From: Escherichia coli
GTDB lineage: Bacteria; Pseudomonadota; Gammaproteobacteria; Enterobacterales; Enterobacteriaceae
Length of the DNA stretch: 64,000 nt
Direction: 5' to 3' (one strand)
Assembly (NCBI RefSeq): GCF_030013595.1
Contig: NZ_CP122768.1
Positions 1,871 through 13,725 of the stretch are shown piece after piece. Position 1 is the first letter of the stretch, and every line of letters starts with the position of its first letter. Under the pieces are notes generated by a model that was given only the letters and a program-made list of their open reading frames with translations, had not been told where the DNA came from and did no database searches. The translations under genes and the position numbers were made by a program.

Positions 1871-2608
1871 ATGAAAAACGTTGGCGACCTGATGCAACGC
1901 CTGCAAAAAATGATGCCTGCCCATATCAAACCTGCTTTCAAAACGGGTGAAGAACTACTGGCCTGGCAGAAAGAACAAGGGGCGATCCGCTCCGCCGCTC
2001 TCGAACGTGAAAATCGGGCGATGAAAATGCAGCGCACCTTTAACCGCTCCGGTATTCGTCCACTGCATCAGAACTGCTCCTTTGAGAACTATCGCGTTGA
2101 GTGTGAAGGGCAAATGAATGCGTTAAGCAAAGCGCGCCAGTATGTCGAAGAGTTTGACGGCAACATCGCCAGCTTCATCTTTTCTGGTAAGCCAGGAACC
2201 GGCAAAAACCATCTGGCGGCGGCAATCTGCAACGAGCTGCTGCTACGCGGTAAATCCGTATTGATCATCACCGTGGCCGATATTATGTCGGCGATGAAAG
2301 ATACCTTCAGGAATAGCGGTACCAGCGAAGAACAACTGCTTAACGATCTGAGCAATGTTGATCTGCTGGTGATCGATGAGATCGGCGTGCAAACCGAATC
2401 GAAATACGAAAAAGTGATCATCAACCAGATCGTCGATCGCCGCTCTTCTTCCAAACGCCCAACCGGGATGCTGACCAACAGTAATATGGAAGAGATGACC
2501 AAGTTGCTGGGCGAACGCGTGATGGACCGTATGCGCCTGGGTAACAGTTTGTGGGTGATCTTCAACTGGGATAGCTACCGTAGCCGGGTAACGGGTAAAG
2601 AGTATTAA
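1871..2608 (+). CDS. dnaC: DNA replication helicase loader DnaC
   Basis: 245-aa ORF with Walker A (GKPGTGKNHLAAA) and Walker B (LLVIDEIG); immediately downstream of dnaT. Confidence 0.95.
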   Translation: MKNVGDLMQRLQKMMPAHIKPAFKTGEELLAWQKEQGAIRSAALERENRAMKMQRTFNRSGIRPLHQNCSFENYRVECEGQMNALSKARQYVEEFDGNIASFIFSGKPGTGKNHLAAAICNELLLRGKSVLIITVADIMSAMKDTFRNSGTSEEQLLNDLSNVDLLVIDEIGVQTESKYEKVIINQIVDRRSSSKRPTGMLTNSNMEEMTKLLGERVMDRMRLGNSLWVIFNWDSYRSRVTGKEY

Positions 2609-2656
2609 TCCTCGTTTCTGGCGGTATACTGCGACACAATTCCACCTTGAGTAATG

Positions 2657-3151
2657 ATGATGAAAACTGTTAAACATCTTCTGTGCTGTGCCATTGCCGC
2701 CAGCGCATTAATTTCCACCGGGGTGCATGCTGCGTCCTGGAAAGATGCGCTCTCCAGCGCCGCCAGCGAACTTGGCAACCAAAACAGCACGACACAGGAA
2801 GGCGGTTGGTCGCTCGCGTCATTAACTAACTTGCTTAGCAGCGGAAACCAGGCCTTAAGCGCAGATAACATGAACAATGCCGCAGGCATTCTGCAATACT
2901 GCGCGAAGCAAAAGCTGGCTTCGGTAACCGATGCCGAAAACATCAAGAATCAGGTACTGGAAAAACTGGGCCTGAACAGTGAAGAGCAAAAAGAAGACAC
3001 CAATTATCTGGATGGCATTCAGGGTTTGCTGAAAACTAAAGATGGTCAGCAACTCAATCTGGATAATATCGGAACGACTCCGCTGGCAGAAAAGGTGAAA
3101 ACCAAAGCCTGCGATCTGGTGTTAAAGCAGGGGCTGAACTTCATTTCCTGA
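2657..3151 (+). CDS. yjjA: YjjA-like secreted protein of unknown function
   Basis: ORF 2654..3151 with signal-peptide-like N-terminus (MKTVKHLLCCAIAASALISTGVHA); position after dnaC. Confidence 0.75.
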   Translation: MMKTVKHLLCCAIAASALISTGVHAASWKDALSSAASELGNQNSTTQEGGWSLASLTNLLSSGNQALSADNMNNAAGILQYCAKQKLASVTDAENIKNQVLEKLGLNSEEQKEDTNYLDGIQGLLKTKDGQQLNLDNIGTTPLAEKVKTKACDLVLKQGLNFIS

Positions 3152-3403
3152 ACCGCGAAACGCCGCGTTTTAGCTGTTACCGGCTGACGCGGCTCTCTCC
3201 TGCCCTTTTCCCTGCTCCTGGACGGTTTTACCCCTGTTACACGGGAAGCGACCGCGATCAAAAAAGTCTGTTTATAAACTAATTCCTAACAACATCGCAT
3301 TTTTTTGACACTAGAATTGCAGCAATATGGCGACGCCATTACATTGTGCTTCTCAAAAAGCTTAAACGTTGGCTAAACGGCCCGGTTTAGTGAGGATCGC
3401 CCG

Positions 3404-5695
3404 TTGTCAGAACTACTCTCTTTCGCCCTTTTTCTCGCCTCTGTGCTGATTTACGCATGGAAAGCGGGACGTAACACCTGGTGGTTTGCAGCCACGTTAA
3501 CGGTGCTGGGGCTATTTGTCGTTTTAAATATCACCCTGTTTGCCAGCGACTATTTTACTGGCGATGGTATTAACGACGCGGTTCTCTATACCTTAACCAA
3601 CAGCCTGACCGGTGCTGGCGTCAGCAAATACATCCTGCCGGGTATCGGCATTGTGCTGGGGCTGACGGCGGTGTTCGGTGCGCTGGGCTGGATCCTGCGC
3701 CGTCGTCGTCATCATCCGCACCATTTTGGTTACAGCCTGCTGGCACTCTTACTGGCGCTGGGTTCAGTGGATGCCAGCCCGGCATTTCGTCAGATAACGG
3801 AACTGGTGAAATCCCAGTCACGCGACGGCGACCCGGACTTTGCGGCTTATTATAAAGAGCCGTCGAAAACTATCCCTGACCCGAAACTCAACCTGGTTTA
3901 TATCTACGGCGAAAGTCTCGAGCGGACCTATTTTGATAACGAAGCTTTCCCGGATCTCACGCCTGAACTGGGCGCGTTGAAAAATGAAGGCCTGGATTTC
4001 AGCCACACGCAGCAGCTGCCGGGAACGGATTACACGATTGCAGGCATGGTGGCTTCTCAGTGTGGCATACCGCTGTTTGCCCCCTTTGAAGGCAACGCCT
4101 CCGCCTCTGTCTCCAGCTTCTTCCCGCAGAACATCTGTCTGGGCGATATCCTGAAAAACTCGGGTTATCAGAACTATTTCGTGCAGGGCGCGAATCTGCG
4201 TTTTGCCGGTAAAGATGTGTTCCTGAAATCGCACGGCTTCGACCACTTATACGGCTCAGAAGAGCTGAAAAGCGTGGTGGCCGACCCGCACTATCGCAAC
4301 GACTGGGGATTCTACGACGATACCGTTCTCGATGAAGCGTGGAAAAAGTTTGAAGAGCTTTCCCGCTCAGGTCAGCGATTCTCACTGTTTACCCTGACAG
4401 TCGATACCCATCACCCGGATGGTTTTATCTCGCGTACCTGTAACCGCAAAAAATATGATTTTGACGGTAAGCCGAATCAGTCATTCAGCGCGGTAAGTTG
4501 CAGCCAGGAGAATATCGCGACGTTTATCAACAAAATCAAAGCGTCACCGTGGTTTAAAGATACCGTCATCGTCGTCTCTTCTGACCATTTAGCGATGAAC
4601 AACACGGCGTGGAAATACCTTAATAAACAGGATCGCAATAACCTGTTTTTTGTCATTCGTGGCGACAAGCCGCAGCAAGAGACGCTGGCAGTGAAGCGTA
4701 ACACGATGGATAACGGCGCGACGGTGCTGGACATTCTCGGTGGCGATAACTATCTCGGACTTGGTCGTAGCAGTTTATCCGGGCAGTCGATGTCGGAAAT
4801 CTTCCTCAATATCAAAGAGAAAACATTGGCGTGGAAGCCGGATATCATCCGCCTGTGGAAATTCCCTAAAGAGATGAAAGAGTTCACCATCGACCAGCAG
4901 AAAAACATGATTGCCTTCTCGGGTAGCCATTTCCGTTTGCCATTGCTGTTGCGGGTTTCAGACAAACGCGTGGAACCGCTGCCGGAAAGTGAATACTCAG
5001 CACCGCTGCGTTTCCAGCTGGCCGATTTCGCTCCACGCGACAATTTCGTCTGGGTTGACCGTTGCTACAAGATGGCACAACTCTGGGCTCCGGAACTGGC
5101 ACTTTCCACCGACTGGTGTGTCTCGCAAGGGCAGCTTGGCGGTCAGCAAATTGTCCAGCATGTTGACAAAACAACATGGAAGGGCAAAACGGTATTTAAA
5201 GATACGGTCATCGACATGGCGCGTTACAAAGGCAATGTCGATACGCTGAAGATTGTTGATAACGATATTCGCTACAAAGCCGACAGTTTCATCTTTAACG
5301 TCGCCGGTGCGCCAGAAGAGGTGAAACAGTTTAGCGGAATTTCCCGTCCGGAGTCGTGGGGCCGCTGGTCCAACGCTCAGCTGGGCGATGAAGTAAAAAT
5401 CGAGTACAAGCATCCGCTGCCGAAGAAATTTGACCTGGTGATTACCGCCAAAGCATACGGCAATAACGCCAGCCGTCCTATTCCGGTACGCGTAGGCAAT
5501 GAAGAACAAACCCTTGTGCTGGGCAATGAAGTGACCACCACCACACTGCATTTCGATAACCCAACCGATGCAGACACACTGGTAATTGTGCCGCCGGAAC
5601 CTGTCTCAACCAACGAAGGGAATATCCTCGGACACTCGCCGCGTAAGCTCGGGATCGGCATGGTGGAAATTAAAGTGGTAGAACGTGAAGGGTAA
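3404..5695 (+). CDS. opgB: phosphoglycerol transferase I (sulfatase-family membrane enzyme)
   Basis: 763-aa ORF with TTG start; N-terminal TM helices followed by a sulfatase-like domain; matches OpgB/MdoB from memory. Confidence 0.9.
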
Positions 5696-5709
5696 TTCCT
5701 GACTGATGT

Positions 5710-5738
5710 GTAGGTCGCATAAGGTGCGACCTACACAC
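5710..5738. terminator. stem-loop between convergent opgB and lgoD
   Basis: inverted repeat gtgtaggtcgca / tgcgacctacac with loop taagg, seen directly. Confidence 0.5.
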
Positions 5739-5833
5739 CTTCTCCGGCCTACAAAACATCATTGAGAAACAGAAAAAAACAGCGCCCAACACTTCCCCGG
5801 ACGCTGCATGGCAACTTTAATAATCTCGCCTTA

Positions 5834-6856
5834 TCAGAAAGTAATTACACCCTTAATCAACTCACGATTGTTAATCACATCGCGCTCGTAGGTTTCTGCC
5901 AGCGTGGCGAACGGATAGCGATGGGTTAACATCATGTCGGCAGTGATTTTCCCTTCCGCCATCAGTCGACCGACTTTAGCGAAATCTTCCGGCGTGGCGT
6001 TGCGGCTGCCCATCATCGTCGTTTCTTTTTTATGGAATTCCGGATCGGAGAACTGCAACTCACCTTTAAACAGGCCGACAAATACCACCGTGCCGCCGTG
6101 ACGAATCAGATTCACGGTGTTATTCATCGCATGTTGATTACCTGTCGCGTCGATCACTTTCTGCGCCAGAGAACCACCAAACTGCGCCCGCAGCTGCGCG
6201 TCAAAATCTTCGGCTGACGGGTCCAGTACAGGTAATTCCAGACGTGTTGCCACATGTTCACGGCGCGCCGGACTGGTATCCGCCACCACCACCTGTGCGC
6301 CATCGGCTTTAGCGATTGCCGCCGCGCCCAGACCGATTGGCCCCGCCCCGACCACCAGCACCTGCTCGCCGGGAGCAATGGCTGCGCGACGCACCGCATG
6401 AGCGCTAATAGCGAAAGGTTCAATCAATGCTGCCGCCTGCGGGTCAATACCATCTGCGGGCAAAATGTTCGCCACCGGCACGCTCAAATACTCACTAAAA
6501 CCGCCATCCTGATGCACGCCAATGACTGAAATTTTTTCACAGCAATTGGTACGCCCGCTTTTACACGCCGGGCATTGCTGACAGGCAACATAAGGGATCA
6601 CAGCAACTTGCTGACCATTTTTAAGATCAGCAATATTTTTACCCAGCCCAACAATCTCCCCACATATTTCATGGCCTAAAACCCGTGGATAACTAAAAAA
6701 TGGTTGATTTCCACCCCAGGCATGAATATCGGTACCGCAAATCCCGACAGACTTAATTTTTATTAATGCTTCATTGTCACCCGGAATAGGTATCTCGCGT
6801 TGTTTCCAGACTAATTCTTTCGGCTGCTGGCAAATTAAAACATTCATCGTAGACAT
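5834..6856 (-). CDS. lgoD: L-galactonate 5-dehydrogenase (Zn-dependent MDR family)
   Basis: ORF 5834..6871 minus; start MSTMNV at 6856 gives 340 aa; Zn-ADH motifs (GHEICGE, CxxCxxC) and Rossmann VVGAGPIG. Confidence 0.85.
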   Translation of the reverse strand: MSTMNVLICQQPKELVWKQREIPIPGDNEALIKIKSVGICGTDIHAWGGNQPFFSYPRVLGHEICGEIVGLGKNIADLKNGQQVAVIPYVACQQCPACKSGRTNCCEKISVIGVHQDGGFSEYLSVPVANILPADGIDPQAAALIEPFAISAHAVRRAAIAPGEQVLVVGAGPIGLGAAAIAKADGAQVVVADTSPARREHVATRLELPVLDPSAEDFDAQLRAQFGGSLAQKVIDATGNQHAMNNTVNLIRHGGTVVFVGLFKGELQFSDPEFHKKETTMMGSRNATPEDFAKVGRLMAEGKITADMMLTHRYPFATLAETYERDVINNRELIKGVITF

Positions 6857-6994
6857 GATTCGGCTCTCCATTTTTTGTTGCCTTAGATATCAATGAAAAT
6901 GAAAAATGGCAGCGGAACGGAAAATCTGTTTTGTGAAAACACACGCATAAAAATGTTTTAAATCGGGTTTTAATGGACTCACAAGGAGGAAAAT

Positions 6995-7909
6995 ATGAGT
7001 CGTTCACAAAATTTACGCCACAATGTGATTAACCAGGTCATTGATGATATGGCGCGGGGTCATATCCCTTCCCCACTTCCATCGCAAAGTGCGCTGGCGG
7101 AAATGTACAACATCAGCCGCACTACAGTGCGTCATATTCTCAGCCACTTACGCGAATGCGGCGTCTTAACGCAGGTTGGAAACGACTATGTTATTGCGCG
7201 TAAACCTGACCATGATGACGGTTTCGCCTGTACTACCGCTTCAATGAGTGAACAAAACAAAGTGTTTGAGCAGGCTTTTTTCACGATGATAAACCAGCGC
7301 CAGTTACGCCCTGGGGAAACTTTTTCTGAACTGCAACTGGCTCGGGCCGCGGGTGTCAGCCCGGTTGTAGTAAGAGAATATCTTTTAAAATTCGGCCGTT
7401 ATAATCTTATTCAAAGCGAAAAGCGCGGCCAGTGGAGCATGAAGCAATTCGATCAATCCTACGCCGAGCAGCTGTTTGAACTACGCGAAATGCTCGAAAC
7501 ACATTCACTTCAGCACTTTCTCAACCTGCCTGATCATGATCCCCGCTGGCTGCAGGCGAAAACCATGCTCGAACGTCATCGGCTACTGCGTGACAACATC
7601 GGCAATAGCTTTCGCATGTTCTCGCAACTTGACAGAGATTTTCACTCCTTACTGCTTTCAGCTGCCGACAATATCTTTTTTGATCAATCTCTTGAGATCA
7701 TCTCAGTCATCTTTCATTTTCACTATCAATGGGACGAAAGCGATCTTAAACAGCGCAATATCATTGCCGTCGATGAGCATATGACCATTCTCAGCGCTCT
7801 GATTTGCCGCAGTGACCTTGATGCCACCCTTGCGCTCCGTAACCATTTGAATTCAGCTAAACAATCAATGATTCGATCCATTAATGAGAACACGCGTTAT
7901 GCTCATTAA
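6995..7909 (+). CDS. lgoR: GntR/FadR-family transcriptional regulator of L-galactonate catabolism
   Basis: 304-aa ORF with N-terminal wHTH; divergent from lgoD. Confidence 0.85.
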   Translation: MSRSQNLRHNVINQVIDDMARGHIPSPLPSQSALAEMYNISRTTVRHILSHLRECGVLTQVGNDYVIARKPDHDDGFACTTASMSEQNKVFEQAFFTMINQRQLRPGETFSELQLARAAGVSPVVVREYLLKFGRYNLIQSEKRGQWSMKQFDQSYAEQLFELREMLETHSLQHFLNLPDHDPRWLQAKTMLERHRLLRDNIGNSFRMFSQLDRDFHSLLLSAADNIFFDQSLEIISVIFHFHYQWDESDLKQRNIIAVDEHMTILSALICRSDLDATLALRNHLNSAKQSMIRSINENTRYAH

Positions 7910-8123
7910 GTACGGATTAAAAACAGCAAACTATTAGCGGGTGCACGGTTTTATCAAAAGATAAATACCGGGAAATTCCCGCTTACCTATGCTCACAATC
8001 AGTCGACTAAAAATGTTTTTGTGAGCGGTAGTAAAGTCCTAAAACTTTAACCTGCCGTTAATGTCAACCTTGCGTAATGCACAATTACGTAAACAATTAA
8101 AATTATAAATACAGGAGTCCGGC

Positions 8124-9485
8124 GTGGAAAAAGAAAATATCACCTTCGATCCGCGTTCTTCATTTACTCCATCTTCATCGGCAGATATTCCCGTGCCACC
8201 AGATGGATTAGTTCAACGCAGTACCCGAATTAAACGCATTCAAACCACCGCCATGTTGTTATTATTTTTTGCGGCGGTAATCAATTATCTCGACCGCAGT
8301 TCGCTGTCGGTAGCAAATTTAACGATTCGTGAAGAATTGGGATTAAGTGCCACCGAAATCGGCGCTTTGCTCTCCGTGTTTTCACTCGCTTACGGGATTG
8401 CGCAACTTCCTTGCGGCCCACTATTGGATCGTAAAGGCCCACGCCTGATGCTGGGACTGGGGATGTTCTTCTGGTCACTGTTCCAGGCCATGTCTGGCAT
8501 GGTGCACAGCTTTACGCAGTTCGTGTTGGTGCGTATTGGTATGGGGATTGGTGAAGCGCCGATGAACCCATGCGGTGTAAAAGTCATTAACGACTGGTTC
8601 AACATCAAAGAGCGCGGACGCCCGATGGGCTTCTTCAACGCAGCTTCTACCATTGGCGTTGCCGTAAGCCCACCGATTCTTGCGGCGATGATGCTGGTGA
8701 TGGGCTGGCGCGGGATGTTTATTACCATTGGTGTACTGGGGATTTTTCTCGCCATCGGCTGGTATATGCTCTATCGCAACCGCGAGCACGTAGAACTGAC
8801 TGCCGTTGAACAAGCTTATCTCAATGCAGGTAGCGTCAATGCCCGCCGAGATCCGCTCAGTTTTGCCGAATGGCGCAGCCTGTTCCGTAACCGCACAATG
8901 TGGGGAATGATGCTCGGATTCAGTGGCATCAACTACACTGCGTGGCTGTATCTGGCCTGGCTTCCTGGTTACCTGCAAACAGCCTATAACCTGGATTTAA
9001 AAAGCACAGGATTGATGGCGGCTATCCCTTTCCTGTTTGGGGCTGCCGGGATGCTGGTCAACGGTTACGTTACCGACTGGCTGGTCAAAGGGGGAATGGC
9101 TCCGATTAAAAGCCGTAAGATCTGCATTATTGCCGGGATGTTCTGTTCTGCCGCCTTTACGCTGGTCGTACCGCAAGCGACAACATCCATGACGGCGGTT
9201 CTGCTGATTGGCATGGCACTGTTCTGTATTCACTTTGCCGGAACATCCTGCTGGGGCTTGATCCACGTCGCAGTTGCTTCTCGCATGACTGCATCGGTGG
9301 GCAGTATCCAGAACTTTGCCAGCTTCATCTGCGCCTCTTTCGCGCCGATCATTACTGGTTTTATTGTTGATACCACCCACTCATTCCGTCTGGCACTAAT
9401 CATCTGCGGTTGCGTCACCGCAGCGGGGGCACTGGCGTACATCTTCCTGGTTCGTCAGCCGATCAACGACCCGCGTAAAGATTAA
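8124..9485 (+). CDS. lgoT: MFS transporter, L-galactonate:H+ symporter
   Basis: 453-aa ORF (GTG start), 12-TM MFS-like hydrophobicity; synteny with lgoR. Confidence 0.85.
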   Translation: MEKENITFDPRSSFTPSSSADIPVPPDGLVQRSTRIKRIQTTAMLLLFFAAVINYLDRSSLSVANLTIREELGLSATEIGALLSVFSLAYGIAQLPCGPLLDRKGPRLMLGLGMFFWSLFQAMSGMVHSFTQFVLVRIGMGIGEAPMNPCGVKVINDWFNIKERGRPMGFFNAASTIGVAVSPPILAAMMLVMGWRGMFITIGVLGIFLAIGWYMLYRNREHVELTAVEQAYLNAGSVNARRDPLSFAEWRSLFRNRTMWGMMLGFSGINYTAWLYLAWLPGYLQTAYNLDLKSTGLMAAIPFLFGAAGMLVNGYVTDWLVKGGMAPIKSRKICIIAGMFCSAAFTLVVPQATTSMTAVLLIGMALFCIHFAGTSCWGLIHVAVASRMTASVGSIQNFASFICASFAPIITGFIVDTTHSFRLALIICGCVTAAGALAYIFLVRQPINDPRKD

Positions 9486-9493
9486 ACTCCCTA

Positions 9494-9528
9494 TGCCCGA
9501 TAACATTTTGCTTATCGGGCATTTTTAT
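9494..9528 (+). terminator. rho-independent terminator after lgoT
   Basis: hairpin atgcccgataa / ttatcgggcat followed by ttttta. Confidence 0.6.
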
Positions 9529-9533
9529 GGCGA

Positions 9534-11198
9534 TTAAAACGTTTCCCAGTTCTCCCCGCTATCTGCCACGGCCATTTTACGCGGCGTAGCTGGCGTCACG
9601 GTTTTTACTACAGCCGATGTTTCACGCTGCTGTTGCTGCTGTTGCTGAATCCGGAACACTGCCACAGCTTCGGTCAGGCGACTGGCCTGCTCTTCCAGCG
9701 CGGCAGCGGCGGCGGCAGATTCTTCCACCAGCGCGGCGTTCTGTTGAGTTACCCGGTCCATCTCAGCAACCGCTAATCCAACCTGATCGATACCACGGCT
9801 CTGCTCATCAGAAGCAGAAGCAATTTCGCCCATAATGTCCGTCACGCGGGTCACGGCACTGACAATCTCCGCCATTGTTTCCCCTGCGCTTTCGACCAGC
9901 GTAGAGCCAACATCTACTTTCCCCACCGAGTCTTCAATCAGGCTTTTAATTTCACGAGCCGCCTGAGCGCTGCGCTGGGCCAGATTACGCACTTCACCCG
10001 CGACCACCGCAAAACCGCGCCCTTGCTCACCCGCGCGCGCTGCTTCAACCGCCGCGTTCAAAGCCAGAATATTGGTCTGGAAGGCAATGCCGTCAATTAC
10101 GCTGATAATATCGGCGATTTTCTGCGAACTGGTGGAGATATCGCGCATAGTCTGCACCACGTTATCTACCACTTTGCCGCCGCGTTGCGCCGTTTCGGAA
10201 GCACTTAACGCCAGGTGGCTGGCCTGACGCGCATTTTCGGCGTTCTGCTTCACCGTTGCGGTCAGTTGCTCCATGCTGGCTGCCGTCTCTTCCAGCGAAG
10301 CGGCCTGTTGCTCGGTGCGCGAAGAGAGATCGTTATTGCCGGTGGCGATTTCGCTGGCACCGCTATAGATGGCATTGGCCCCGTTGCGCACATCACCGAC
10401 GGTACGCATCAGCTCTCCCTGCATATGGCGCAAACTCTCTGCCAGTTGCCCCATCTCATTAGAGCCATCCACCTCAATCGGTTTCACCAGATCGCCGCCT
10501 GCAATATGACGAATGCTGTCAATCAGGCGATTCATTGGCGCTACCAACGAGGCTTTAATACCGAACCAGACGGCGAAGATGACCGCCAGTACGACGATCA
10601 TCACGCCCACCAGAATCCACATCGCCTGGCTGTAGGAGGCATTATTATCGCTGACGGCGATATCATAGAGCCGATCGTTTTGCTCCATGTAAGCCACATA
10701 CTGCTTCTCGAAACCGTCCTGATATCCCTGGGTTGGCTGATCAAAGAACTCGTTGATTTTGCCTGCACCTAACAGTTGGATCAGCTCCGCCAGCGCATTG
10801 TGATAAATATCGTAATTACGTTTGATCTCTGCCGCTGCGGCGGTGCTCTGACGCGGGTCACGCGGCAACGCTTCGTAATCCGCCCAGTTTTTTTCCGCCT
10901 GTTTCAGCGAAATACTGGCACTCTGCATTAGCTCAGCAACGGTTGAACCGCTACCAATATTATTCTGATCCATCATGTAGCGGATACCCGCGCGGTTGAG
11001 GGTGTTACGCGTCTGCAACAACGCAACCCAGCTGCCATTCAGCGTGGATTGCTGCTGGCGAATGGTTTGTAAAACAGTGAAATTTTCTTTGTCATTCTTT
11101 AAGGCATTAAAGAACAGACCGCCTGATGTCAGTTGTAAAAGGCCAAAAACGGCCAAAACCAGCAGTAAGCTGGTCACAATTTTGATACGTTTTAACAT
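9534..11198 (-). CDS. tsr: methyl-accepting chemotaxis protein I (serine chemoreceptor)
   Basis: 554-aa ORF with HAMP, methylation helices and C-terminal NWETF pentapeptide; poly-Q tract near the C-terminus. Confidence 0.95.
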
Positions 11199-11228
11199 GG
11201 TTTCTCTTTCCTGTGGACCGATGCAAGA

Positions 11229-11255
11229 TTTTCGGCCTGGAAAGGAAAAACTTTA
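11229..11255 (-). promoter_or_regulatory. sigma-28 (FliA)-type promoter upstream of tsr
   Basis: minus-strand TAAAGTTT, 11-nt spacer, GCCGAAAA, read directly; matches the class III flagellar promoter consensus TAAAGTTT-N11-GCCGATAA. Confidence 0.5.
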
Positions 11256-11341
11256 TGAATATCCCGCGGAGATTACGCCGAGTAATTTTATTCACACTCT
11301 GAATTTAAAAAACCATTATTTACATAAATTATTCACAATAT

Positions 11342-11367
11342 AAATATGTGATATGAATCACATATTT
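11342..11367. promoter_or_regulatory. CRP-binding site in the btsT upstream region
   Basis: perfect palindrome aaatatGTGATatgaaTCACAtattt (TGTGA-N6-TCACA core at 11347..11362). Confidence 0.55.
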
Positions 11368-11390
11368 ATCGTCACTTAAACGACGCCTTT

Positions 11391-11418
11391 GCCGCTCAAC
11401 CGCAAAACTGACCGCTTA
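11391..11418 (+). promoter_or_regulatory. putative BtsR (YehT, LytTR-type) direct-repeat operator
   Basis: direct repeats GCCGCTCA and ACCGCTTA 12 nt apart, resembling the ACC(G/A)CT(C/T)A repeats reported for the yjiY promoter. Confidence 0.4.
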
Positions 11419-11574
11419 CATCCCTAAAATAACCACTCAGTTATTTACCTTACTTTACGCGCGCGTAACTCTGGCAACATCACTGCAGGATAGCGGTCAA
11501 TTTACCTCCTCAAACGCAACGCAAACCTAGAACGGCTTCGGCCAACTATTAATCAATACATGCCAGGTTTTACT

Positions 11575-13725
11575 ATGGATACTAAAAAGATATTCAAGCA
11601 CATACCCTGGGTGATTCTCGGAATCATCGGTGCATTCTGCCTCGCGGTAGTTGCATTACGTCGGGGGGAGCACGTCAGCGCCCTGTGGATCGTGGTCGCC
11701 TCTGTGTCGGTGTATCTGGTGGCTTATCGCTACTACAGTCTGTACATCGCCCAGAAGGTAATGAAACTCGACCCCACGCGCGCGACGCCTGCGGTTATTA
11801 ACAACGACGGTCTGAACTATGTTCCGACCAACCGTTACGTGTTGTTTGGTCACCACTTCGCCGCTATCGCCGGTGCTGGTCCGCTGGTTGGTCCGGTGCT
11901 CGCCGCGCAGATGGGCTACCTGCCTGGCACGCTGTGGCTGCTGGCGGGGGTAGTACTGGCCGGTGCGGTTCAGGACTTTATGGTGCTGTTTATCTCCTCT
12001 CGCCGTAACGGCGCATCTCTCGGTGAGATGATCAAAGAAGAGATGGGACCAGTACCGGGGACTATCGCGCTGTTTGGCTGTTTCTTAATCATGATCATCA
12101 TCCTCGCCGTTCTGGCGCTGATTGTGGTTAAAGCCCTGGCCGAAAGTCCGTGGGGTGTCTTCACCGTTTGCTCAACCGTACCAATTGCGCTGTTTATGGG
12201 TATCTACATGCGCTTTATCCGTCCGGGGCGTGTGGGTGAAGTCTCTGTCATTGGTATCGTGCTGCTGGTTGCCTCTATCTACTTCGGTGGCGTGATTGCT
12301 CACGATCCGTACTGGGGTCCGGCACTGACCTTTAAAGACACCACCATTACCTTCGCGCTGATTGGCTATGCGTTTGTTTCCGCACTGCTGCCGGTGTGGC
12401 TGATCCTCGCACCGCGCGACTATCTGGCAACCTTCCTGAAAATCGGTGTTATCGTCGGCCTGGCGCTGGGTATCGTGGTGCTGAACCCGGAACTGAAAAT
12501 GCCTGCGATGACCCAGTACATTGACGGTACTGGCCCGCTGTGGAAAGGCGCTCTGTTCCCGTTCCTGTTCATCACCATCGCCTGTGGTGCGGTATCTGGC
12601 TTCCACGCACTGATCTCTTCCGGTACGACGCCGAAACTGCTGGCTAATGAAACCGACGCGCGTTTCATTGGCTACGGCGCAATGCTGATGGAGTCCTTCG
12701 TGGCGATTATGGCGCTGGTTGCAGCGTCCATCATCGAACCGGGTCTTTACTTCGCGATGAACACCCCGCCTGCGGGCCTTGGCATCACCATGCCTAACCT
12801 GCATGAAATGGGTGGCGAGAACGCGCCGATCATCATGGCGCAGTTGAAAGACGTTACCGCACACGCGGCGGCGACCGTCAGCTCCTGGGGCTTCGTGATT
12901 TCGCCAGAGCAGATCCTGCAAACCGCGAAAGACATTGGTGAGCCTTCTGTCCTGAACCGTGCAGGTGGTGCGCCGACACTGGCGGTAGGTATCGCTCACG
13001 TGTTCCACAAAGTGCTGCCGATGGCTGACATGGGCTTCTGGTATCACTTCGGTATTCTGTTCGAAGCCCTGTTCATCCTGACCGCGCTGGATGCCGGTAC
13101 CCGTTCTGGCCGCTTTATGCTGCAAGACCTGCTGGGTAACTTCATCCCGTTCCTGAAAAAAACCGACTCTCTGGTTGCTGGTATCATCGGTACTGCGGGC
13201 TGTGTGGGTCTGTGGGGCTACCTGCTGTATCAGGGCGTGGTCGATCCGCTGGGCGGCGTTAAGAGCCTGTGGCCGCTGTTCGGTATCTCCAACCAGATGC
13301 TGGCCGCCGTGGCGCTGGTACTGGGTACCGTTGTGCTGATTAAGATGAAGCGCACCCAATACATCTGGGTAACTGTTGTTCCGGCTGTATGGCTGCTTAT
13401 CTGCACCACCTGGGCGCTGGGCCTGAAACTGTTCAGTACCAACCCGCAGATGGAAGGCTTCTTCTACATGGCAAGCCAGTACAAAGAGAAGATTGCTAAC
13501 GGTACTGACCTGACGGCGCAGCAGATTGCCAACATGAACCACATCGTTGTGAATAACTACACCAACGCAGGTCTGAGTATTCTGTTCCTGATCGTGGTGT
13601 ACAGCATCATCTTCTATGGTTTCAAAACCTGGCTTGCGGTGCGTAACAGCGACAAACGTACTGACAAAGAAACACCGTACGTTCCAATCCCGGAAGGCGG
13701 CGTGAAGATCTCTTCGCACCACTAA
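11575..13725 (+). CDS. btsT: pyruvate/H+ symporter, CstA family
   Basis: ORF 11560..13725; start MDTKKIF at 11575 gives 716 aa; polytopic membrane protein. Confidence 0.9.
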   Translation: MDTKKIFKHIPWVILGIIGAFCLAVVALRRGEHVSALWIVVASVSVYLVAYRYYSLYIAQKVMKLDPTRATPAVINNDGLNYVPTNRYVLFGHHFAAIAGAGPLVGPVLAAQMGYLPGTLWLLAGVVLAGAVQDFMVLFISSRRNGASLGEMIKEEMGPVPGTIALFGCFLIMIIILAVLALIVVKALAESPWGVFTVCSTVPIALFMGIYMRFIRPGRVGEVSVIGIVLLVASIYFGGVIAHDPYWGPALTFKDTTITFALIGYAFVSALLPVWLILAPRDYLATFLKIGVIVGLALGIVVLNPELKMPAMTQYIDGTGPLWKGALFPFLFITIACGAVSGFHALISSGTTPKLLANETDARFIGYGAMLMESFVAIMALVAASIIEPGLYFAMNTPPAGLGITMPNLHEMGGENAPIIMAQLKDVTAHAAATVSSWGFVISPEQILQTAKDIGEPSVLNRAGGAPTLAVGIAHVFHKVLPMADMGFWYHFGILFEALFILTALDAGTRSGRFMLQDLLGNFIPFLKKTDSLVAGIIGTAGCVGLWGYLLYQGVVDPLGGVKSLWPLFGISNQMLAAVALVLGTVVLIKMKRTQYIWVTVVPAVWLLICTTWALGLKLFSTNPQMEGFFYMASQYKEKIANGTDLTAQQIANMNHIVVNNYTNAGLSILFLIVVYSIIFYGFKTWLAVRNSDKRTDKETPYVPIPEGGVKISSHH

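Follow-up and report, generated by a model that had tools for sequence, protein, structure and literature searches.

A CRP site and phased BtsR-type boxes upstream of btsT in Escherichia coli: the probable upstream half of a known promoter

The interval 11342-11418 of the 64,000-nucleotide stretch of Escherichia coli DNA analysed here (hereafter the window) very probably is the upstream half of the btsT promoter and belongs to an AND gate that combines CRP and BtsR. The first-pass annotation had taken this interval to mark the likely promoter; it does cover the upstream half of it, whereas the core promoter is predicted further downstream, at about 11443-11487. In the mechanism that we favour, cAMP-CRP would bind a near-consensus site centred at 11354.5 and would act directly at this site, and phosphorylated BtsR, a regulator of the LytTR type, would bind direct repeats at 11391, 11411 and 11432, whose spacing of 20-21 bp (two helical turns) would place them on one face of the DNA. 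Phosphorylated on the pyruvate signal, BtsR would recruit RNA polymerase to a weak extended -10 promoter, TGGCAACAT, with box 3 at a fixed 43 bp before it and transcription starting near 11487. Both inputs would be needed, external pyruvate through BtsS/BtsR and carbon limitation through cAMP-CRP, and CRP would serve as a far-upstream co-activator that acts through its fixed geometry with the BtsR array, not from a class I or class II position.

Genomic context of the control region

The control region lies between two divergent genes:

9534-11198, minus strand: tsr, chemoreceptor gene, divergent from btsT
11575-13725, plus strand: btsT (yjiY) coding sequence from the open reading frame list, 716 aa, translation beginning MDTKKIFKHI, 'pyruvate/proton symporter BtsT' in RefSeq

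The divergent intergenic region between tsr and btsT spans 376 bp and contains the whole array of CRP site and boxes. Window positions 11150-11650 are 100% identical to E. coli strain MEI003, in which the features beneath are annotated as tsr and btsT, and positions 11300-11440 share 99.3% identity with K-12 MG1655. The window strain is separated from K-12 by few SNPs and indels, all of them outside the control elements; in the alignment, both strains have the same letters in the CRP site, in all three boxes and in the predicted -10. The start codon of btsT is the ATG at 11575, which is annotated and conserved, and other genera do not share the in-frame ATG at 11560. From the centre of the CRP site (11354.5) to the ATG at 11575 the distance is 220.5 bp; the palindrome had been correctly placed upstream of btsT in the first pass, but at about 210 bp from the start of the gene.

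A near-consensus CRP site

Two overlapping symmetric features, neither assigned to a strand, define the upstream end of the array:

11344-11365: CRP site, 22-mer ATATGTGATATGAATCACATAT, with TGTGA at 11347-11351 and TCACA at 11358-11362, centre 11354.5
11340-11369: extended inverted repeat from the inverted-repeat search, arms ATAAATATGTGAT and ATCACATATTTAT, centre ATGA

The sole match to TGTGA-N6-TCACA in the 64-kb window is TGTGATATGAATCACA at 11347-11362, with 0.07 matches expected in 64 kb and at least one match in 7 of 100 shuffles. The 22-mer agrees with the CRP consensus AAATGTGATCTAGATCACATTT at 17 of 22 positions, all of TGTGAT...ATCACA included; with a perfect core, it bears out the initial description of a near-consensus CRP site. 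It is a two-fold symmetric 22-bp site built on the TGTGA-N6-TCACA core, it is conserved in the orthologous promoters (79 of 79 regions, see below), and the gene next to it depends on crp and cAMP according to the literature. The same first reading had described a perfect 26-bp palindrome at 11342-11367. This 26-mer is laid out as 11+4+11 nt; symmetry extends to only 22 of the 26 positions, and it is not strictly perfect because the central ATGA is not self-complementary. The longer inverted repeat consists of two 13-nt arms (11340-11352 and 11357-11369) that are 100% complementary and 4 nt apart; only in the tsr-adjacent haplotype of Escherichia does it extend beyond the CRP 22-mer. The available part of the supplementary files of the Crp ChIP-exo paper contains no yjiY, btsT or tsr entry.

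The DNA on the tsr side of the site holds a weak second CRP-like site, AGTAATTTTATTCACA, with two core mismatches (11281-11296), as well as a direct repeat beginning with TTATTCACA at 11288-11304 and 11329-11345. Neither is conserved elsewhere, and the segment that holds them is haplotype-specific and AT-rich (70% AT).

Three phased BtsR-type boxes

Downstream of the CRP site, a series of direct repeats follows on the plus strand:

11371-11378, plus strand: degenerate 'box 0', GTCACTTA, 20 bp upstream of box 1
11391-11398, plus strand: BtsR box 1, GCCGCTCA, 7/8 to ACC[G/A]CT[C/T]A, the first repeat of the first-pass annotation
11411-11418, plus strand: BtsR box 2, ACCGCTTA, 8/8 to the motif, the second repeat of that annotation
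11432-11439, plus strand: BtsR box 3, ACCACTCA, 8/8 to the motif, absent from that annotation

Boxes 1 and 2 have a period of 20 with a 12-nt spacer, and boxes 2 and 3 are 21 bp apart with a 13-nt spacer, which is the layout of a LytTR site, namely direct repeats of about 8-11 nt with 11-13 nt between them (PMC4847170). The one mismatch of box 1 to the motif is at position 1, where it has a G; box 1 in E. coli haplotype B (described below) is a perfect 8/8 match. With 11 occurrences of ACCRCTYA in the window against 6.1 expected, a single 8-mer is weak evidence. In the window there is a single occurrence of the three-box array RCCRCTYA-N12-ACCRCTYA-N13-ACCRCTYA, even when two mismatches are allowed, and 0 of 100 shuffles contain it.

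The repeats GCCGCTCA and ACCGCTTA are present at 11391-11398 and 11411-11418, exactly where they had been reported. The distance given for them, about 30 bp after the palindrome, was too long, the measured gap to box 1 being 21-23 bp, and the extent of two repeats was too short, with the third box, ACCACTCA, at 11432-11439 beyond its end coordinate. Their assignment to the YehT/BtsR type holds in so far as both are BtsR-type boxes, but the pair of the published type is boxes 2 and 3. The abstract of Kraxenberger 2012 reportedly describes two direct repeats ACC[G/A]CT[C/T]A that are 13 bp apart. The boxes match this motif. We take boxes 2 and 3, ACCGCTTA-N13-ACCACTCA, to be the pair that fits the YehT/BtsR motif and the 13-bp spacer so reported; the pair GCCGCTCA and ACCGCTTA does not fit it, because of its 12-bp spacer and the G at position 1.

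The array coincides with DNA used experimentally as a YehT site: the Jung-laboratory oligonucleotide 'yjiY YehT bs', the YehT binding site in their experiments (PMC4847170), is identical to window 11386-11443. It comprises a 25-nt upstream flank with box 1, then box 2, the 13-nt spacer, box 3 and 4 nt. This layout parallels the design of the YpdB oligonucleotide and suggests that the site intended by the authors was boxes 2 and 3.

Conservation across Enterobacterales

The btsT loci were taken from 80 Enterobacterales species genomes, and 78 upstream regions together with the window, 79 in total, were analysed. A CRP-like core is present in all 79 regions, without mismatch in 29, with one mismatch in 46 and with two in 4. 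Measured from start to start, the core is followed by box 1 at 44 bp in 70 regions, at 43 bp in 7 and at 45 bp in 2. Box 2 starts 20 bp after box 1 in 74/79 and 21 bp after it in 5/79; box 3 starts 20 bp after box 2 in 53/79, 21 bp after it in 25/79 and 22 bp after it in 1/79. The motif is perfect in 55 of the 79 regions for box 1, in 70 for box 2 and in 56 for box 3, and in some species the series numbers four or five phased boxes.

Information content follows the same elements. It is 1.56 bits for TGTGA and 1.98 bits for TCACA, 0.33 bit for the 25-bp gap between the CRP site and box 1, 1.63 bits for box 1, 0.49 bit for the spacer between boxes 1 and 2, and 1.54 bits for box 2; within the CRP/box part of the 79 upstream regions, no blocks other than the CRP core and the boxes are conserved. 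The 37 bp upstream of the CRP site have an information content of 0.09 bit, and since that sequence is unconserved, the CRP site is, judged by these profiles, the sharp upstream edge of the conserved btsT control region. At the 'box 0' offset, 22 of 68 unique species sequences (about one third) score at least 6/8 against the box consensus, and the mean score is 4.15 versus about 2.7 at other offsets, which is weak evidence for 'box 0'; any function of it would be putative.

Box 1 is an additional upstream box outside the pair of the published type, as conserved as box 3 of that pair. Conservation favours box 1 as a putative third BtsR site, one that is reportedly absent from the published two-repeat description. 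We consider it rather unlikely that only boxes 2 and 3 bind BtsR, with box 1 (GCCGCTCA) conserved for another reason and the pair of the first-pass annotation not the operative one. That reading would account for the fit of the reported motif and 13-bp spacer to just boxes 2 and 3 and for the departure of box 1 from the motif at position 1 in the window; it also agrees with the oligonucleotide, where box 1 falls into the 25-nt upstream flank in parallel to the YpdB design, and with LytTR sites in general, which typically consist of two repeats with 11-13 nt spacers (PMC4847170). It sits poorly, however, with a box 1 that is perfect about as often as box 3 (55/79 vs 56/79), that keeps a strict 20 bp from box 2 in 74/79 regions and that in some species belongs to a series of four or five phased boxes, and flanking DNA matters for LytTR binding according to the same laboratory (PMC4847170). 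The more ambitious proposal, that the btsT promoter is a rigid Enterobacterales module in which box 1 is a functional third BtsR site and CRP acts through the 44-bp geometry, we put forward tentatively, as a serious possibility that falls somewhat short of probable. Such a module would read, in order, CRP site, degenerate box 0, three phased BtsR boxes and extended -10, and CRP would work by bend-assisted or cooperative assembly with the BtsR array and not by classical contact.

Predicted core promoter and btsT leader

The conserved blocks that follow box 3 are all on the plus strand:

11443-11459, plus strand: ATTTACC / ACTTTAC block, -35 region, a high-information block just after box 3
11472-11480, plus strand: predicted extended -10, TGGCAACAT, placed by conservation, with the start expected near 11487
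11487-11574, plus strand: predicted btsT 5' UTR, with blocks conserved across genera
11488-11490, plus strand: GGA, in the predicted 5' UTR
11534-11543, plus strand: GGCTTCGGCC hairpin, in the predicted 5' UTR
11563-11568, plus strand: CCAGGT, Shine-Dalgarno region, in the predicted 5' UTR

The core promoter of btsT would consist of an extended -10 and a poor -35 with a start near 11487, the position of the -10 being derived from conservation. In 72 of 79 species the pattern TGnCAnnnT is found 38-40 bp downstream of the first base of box 3, CAnnAT is kept as far as Pantoea, Erwinia and Rahnella, and the hexamer of TGGCAACAT is the most consistently -10-like position, with 72% of species scoring positive; as a -10 hexamer, CAACAT is poor. 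TTTACC, which agrees with TTGACA at four of six positions, is a candidate -35 element. A sigma-70 consensus scan detected no plus-strand promoter downstream of the boxes, as would be expected for an activator-dependent promoter. For the btsT transcription start, Table S1 of Kim 2012 has no yjiY entry or coordinate.

With a start at 11487, the centres would lie near -51.5 for box 3, -72.5 for box 2, -92.5 for box 1 and -132.5 for the CRP site. Window positions 11480-11490, around this predicted start, map to about 4,591,364-4,591,374 in K-12 (U00096.3). Alternatively, TTTACC (11444-11449) combined with a weak -10 at about 11466-11472 would give a start near 11479 and a CRP site near -124.5. Class I CRP sites are centred at -61.5 and further upstream in helical-turn steps, and class II sites at -41.5. 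Neither -132.5 nor -124.5, both counted from predicted starts, is a classical class I or class II position, and a CRP site about 125-133 bp upstream of the predicted start is unusual and has no clear phase relation to the class I positions. The rigid 44-bp spacing, maintained over DNA that is itself not conserved, argues for a geometric constraint, which could be a bend or cooperative assembly. The CRP arrangement looks like that of a co-activator, of class III type.

Several other candidates for promoter elements were considered and rejected. A sigma-54 promoter, TGGCAACATCACTGCA (TGGCA-N7-TGCA, 11472-11487), does not keep its GG-N10-GC spacing outside Escherichia, and BtsR is not an enhancer-binding protein but a regulator of the LytTR type. 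Immediately downstream of the CRP site, a class I or class II promoter would require a -10, and no conserved one was found there on either strand. Consensus promoter matches on the minus strand fall into haplotype-specific AT-rich DNA and are near chance (3 vs 1.4 expected). A fourth box in the ACTTTAC block has poor spacing (17 bp from box 3) and a poor match (4/8).

The predicted leader has features of its own. The conserved block ACCTCCTCAAAC at 11504-11515 resembles the anti-Shine-Dalgarno sequence, and the conserved hairpin GGCTTCGGCC at 11534-11543 has a UUCG loop. A structured or riboswitch-like leader was rejected, the fold being no more stable than that of shuffled sequences (z = +1.1), as was an Rfam family, the only match in the leader being a sub-threshold one to Pistol (20.4 bits vs a gathering score of 34.5). 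The predicted 5' UTR also contains a near-copy of box 2 plus flank in inverted orientation, with AGCGGTCAATTT at 11492-11503 complementary to AAACTGACCGCT at 11405-11416 at 11 of 12 positions; GCGG is replaced there by GCAG in other genera, and this near-copy is probably due to chance. About 2060 E. coli genomes carry an insert of roughly 125-140 bp in the btsT 5' UTR, just before the Shine-Dalgarno region. The same insert, located after the equivalent of about window position 11545, is also present in E. albertii and Escherichia sp. E1V33 (locus L001, positions 1353-1492). It resembles the ERIC/IRU repeat (GTGAATCCCC..GGGGTGA) and may be a copy of it. Megablast found one copy of the insert per genome.

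Assignment of the CRP site to btsT

The CRP site could in principle serve either of the two divergent genes. On the side of tsr, one promoter was recognized:

11255-11229, minus strand: tsr sigma-28 (FliA) promoter, TAAAGTTT-N11-GCCGAAAA, -35 at 11255-11248 and -10 at 11236-11229

From this promoter, tsr would start near 11221, with the CRP site about 133 bp upstream of that start; in the tsr-adjacent haplotype, the two genes are at about the same distance from the site. A published SELEX peak of the RpoF holoenzyme in the yjiY/tsr spacer agrees with the sigma-28 promoter, and tsr is, again from published work, a FliA-dependent gene.

Three haplotypes can be distinguished by the DNA upstream of btsT in E. 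coli. Haplotype A, tsr-adjacent as in the window, is found in about 2750 complete genomes; haplotype B, with other DNA upstream of btsT, in about 2226 genomes; and haplotype C, of the O55/O157 type, in about 362 genomes. Strain EC01307 exemplifies haplotype B, with an 11-kb hpaR-hpaC 4-hydroxyphenylacetate cluster between tsr and btsT (locus L086, positions 1906-13126). The flanks of the three haplotypes are unrelated, and in each of them TGTGAT-N4-ATCACA is retained exactly 44 bp ahead of box 1. The 132 bp at window 11260-11391, which include this version of the palindrome, are specific to the tsr-adjacent haplotype, and the replacement DNA of each haplotype carries its own CRP core at the same spacing. 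On the tsr side of haplotype B, only 11199-11259 with the sigma-28 promoter is kept and the palindrome is lost. Across 78 species loci, tsr is adjacent in about 22 and at least 1 kb away in 13, and in the rest there is mostly no tsr within 2.5 kb. Because it is retained in three haplotypes whose upstream neighbours differ, the CRP site is, on this comparative evidence, that of btsT and not of tsr.

In haplotype B, a hairpin with a T-run (CCCCTTC..GAAGGGGCATTTTTAT) ends the upstream hpa operon and directly adjoins the CRP site (locus L001, positions 1118-1156). This hairpin was not called by the terminator scan, which was limited to loops of 3-8 nt; judged by eye, the hairpin has a loop of 11 nt.

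Two other accounts of the palindrome have to be weighed against direct CRP action on btsT. That it serves the divergent tsr, or both genes, instead of btsT would be in keeping with its distance of about 133 bp from the sigma-28 start of tsr, similar to that from the predicted btsT start, and with binding of the RpoF holoenzyme in the tsr/yjiY spacer. This is nonetheless very improbable, considering that in haplotype B the tsr side has no palindrome and btsT retains its own CRP site, that about half of the species have no tsr within 2.5 kb and the site is still 43-45 bp from box 1, and that tsr is FliA-dependent. We judge it likewise very improbable that CRP controls btsT indirectly, for example through btsSR expression or pyruvate metabolism, and that the palindrome belongs to another factor or is non-functional. 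The crp dependence shown in the literature is genetic (PMC7730263; PMC5431176; PMC10653868), with which an indirect effect would be compatible, and the site is unusually distant from the predicted start. Against this, it is at or near consensus at every informative position, in the GTGA...TCACA form that is specific to CRP; it has the highest information content of the region and keeps a fixed distance to the boxes across a bacterial order; and it coincides with an independent, top-ranked Crp prediction (PMC1794230).

Published regulation of btsT

Experimental work on btsT is consistent with an AND gate of CRP and BtsR. Deletion of crp abolishes PbtsT-lux activity (PMC7730263), btsT requires both cAMP-CRP and BtsS/BtsR (PMC5431176; PMC10653868), and it is repressed by CsrA (PMC7730263; PMC5431176; PMC10653868). 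In Salmonella, deletion of btsSR abolishes btsT expression. PhyloScan ranked yjiY 4th to 7th genome-wide for Crp sites in 2007 (PMC1794230). The arrangement had been proposed at the outset to fit the known catabolite and pyruvate control of this transporter, and the published dependence on crp and on BtsS/BtsR agrees with that proposal.

Comparison with known promoters

The CRP/BtsR control region of btsT is already known and ordinary, its control in K-12 having been published since 2012. What the present analysis adds is a conserved third box, a rigid spacing between the CRP site and the boxes, and the retention of the site in three E. coli haplotypes. The anatomy is corrected accordingly to three boxes instead of two, with boxes 2 and 3 as the pair of the published type and a core promoter that is predicted to lie downstream. 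Given the comparative footprint, in which 79 species have the CRP site 43-45 bp from box 1, the third box and the spacing can be tested in the existing PbtsT-lux reporters.

The closest relative is the yjiY (btsT) promoter of E. coli K-12 itself, which is the same locus with identical elements and published dependence on crp and btsSR. The yjiY promoter and its YehT/BtsR site are said to have been described by Kraxenberger et al. in 2012 (in J Bacteriol 194:4272). The published description reportedly has two repeats and is without box 1; nothing else of substance differs. In the rhaSR, rhaBAD, araBAD and uhpT promoters, too, a CRP site lies distal to the tandem sites of a specific activator, and both activators are needed. 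CRP is positioned at about -92 to -112 in promoters of this type; in btsT, by comparison, the predicted CRP position is -124 to -133, and three or four activator boxes lie between.

The promoter of cstA, which encodes the paralogous pyruvate transporter of E. coli, is likewise CRP-dependent with an unusually far CRP site, about 80 nt from the start, and cstA is repressed post-transcriptionally by CsrA, as in the CsrA control of btsT (PMC7730263). Unlike btsT, it is without BtsR boxes and is driven by sigma-70, with Fis as a repressor, and the signal to which it responds is growth phase, not pyruvate (PMC7730263). The second LytTR system of E. coli provides the other parallel. In the yhjX promoter, the target of YpdB, two copies of GGCATTTCAT form direct repeats on the same DNA face, with an 11-nt spacer and a 21-bp period, and YpdB binds to them sequentially and cooperatively (PMC4847170). 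The repeat differs in sequence from the BtsR boxes, and the literature covered here reports no CRP site for yhjX. The YpdB oligonucleotide also has a third, degenerate repeat, CGTCATTCAT, which precedes site A by 21 bp (PMC4847170), and three phased sites may be common to both LytTR systems of E. coli.
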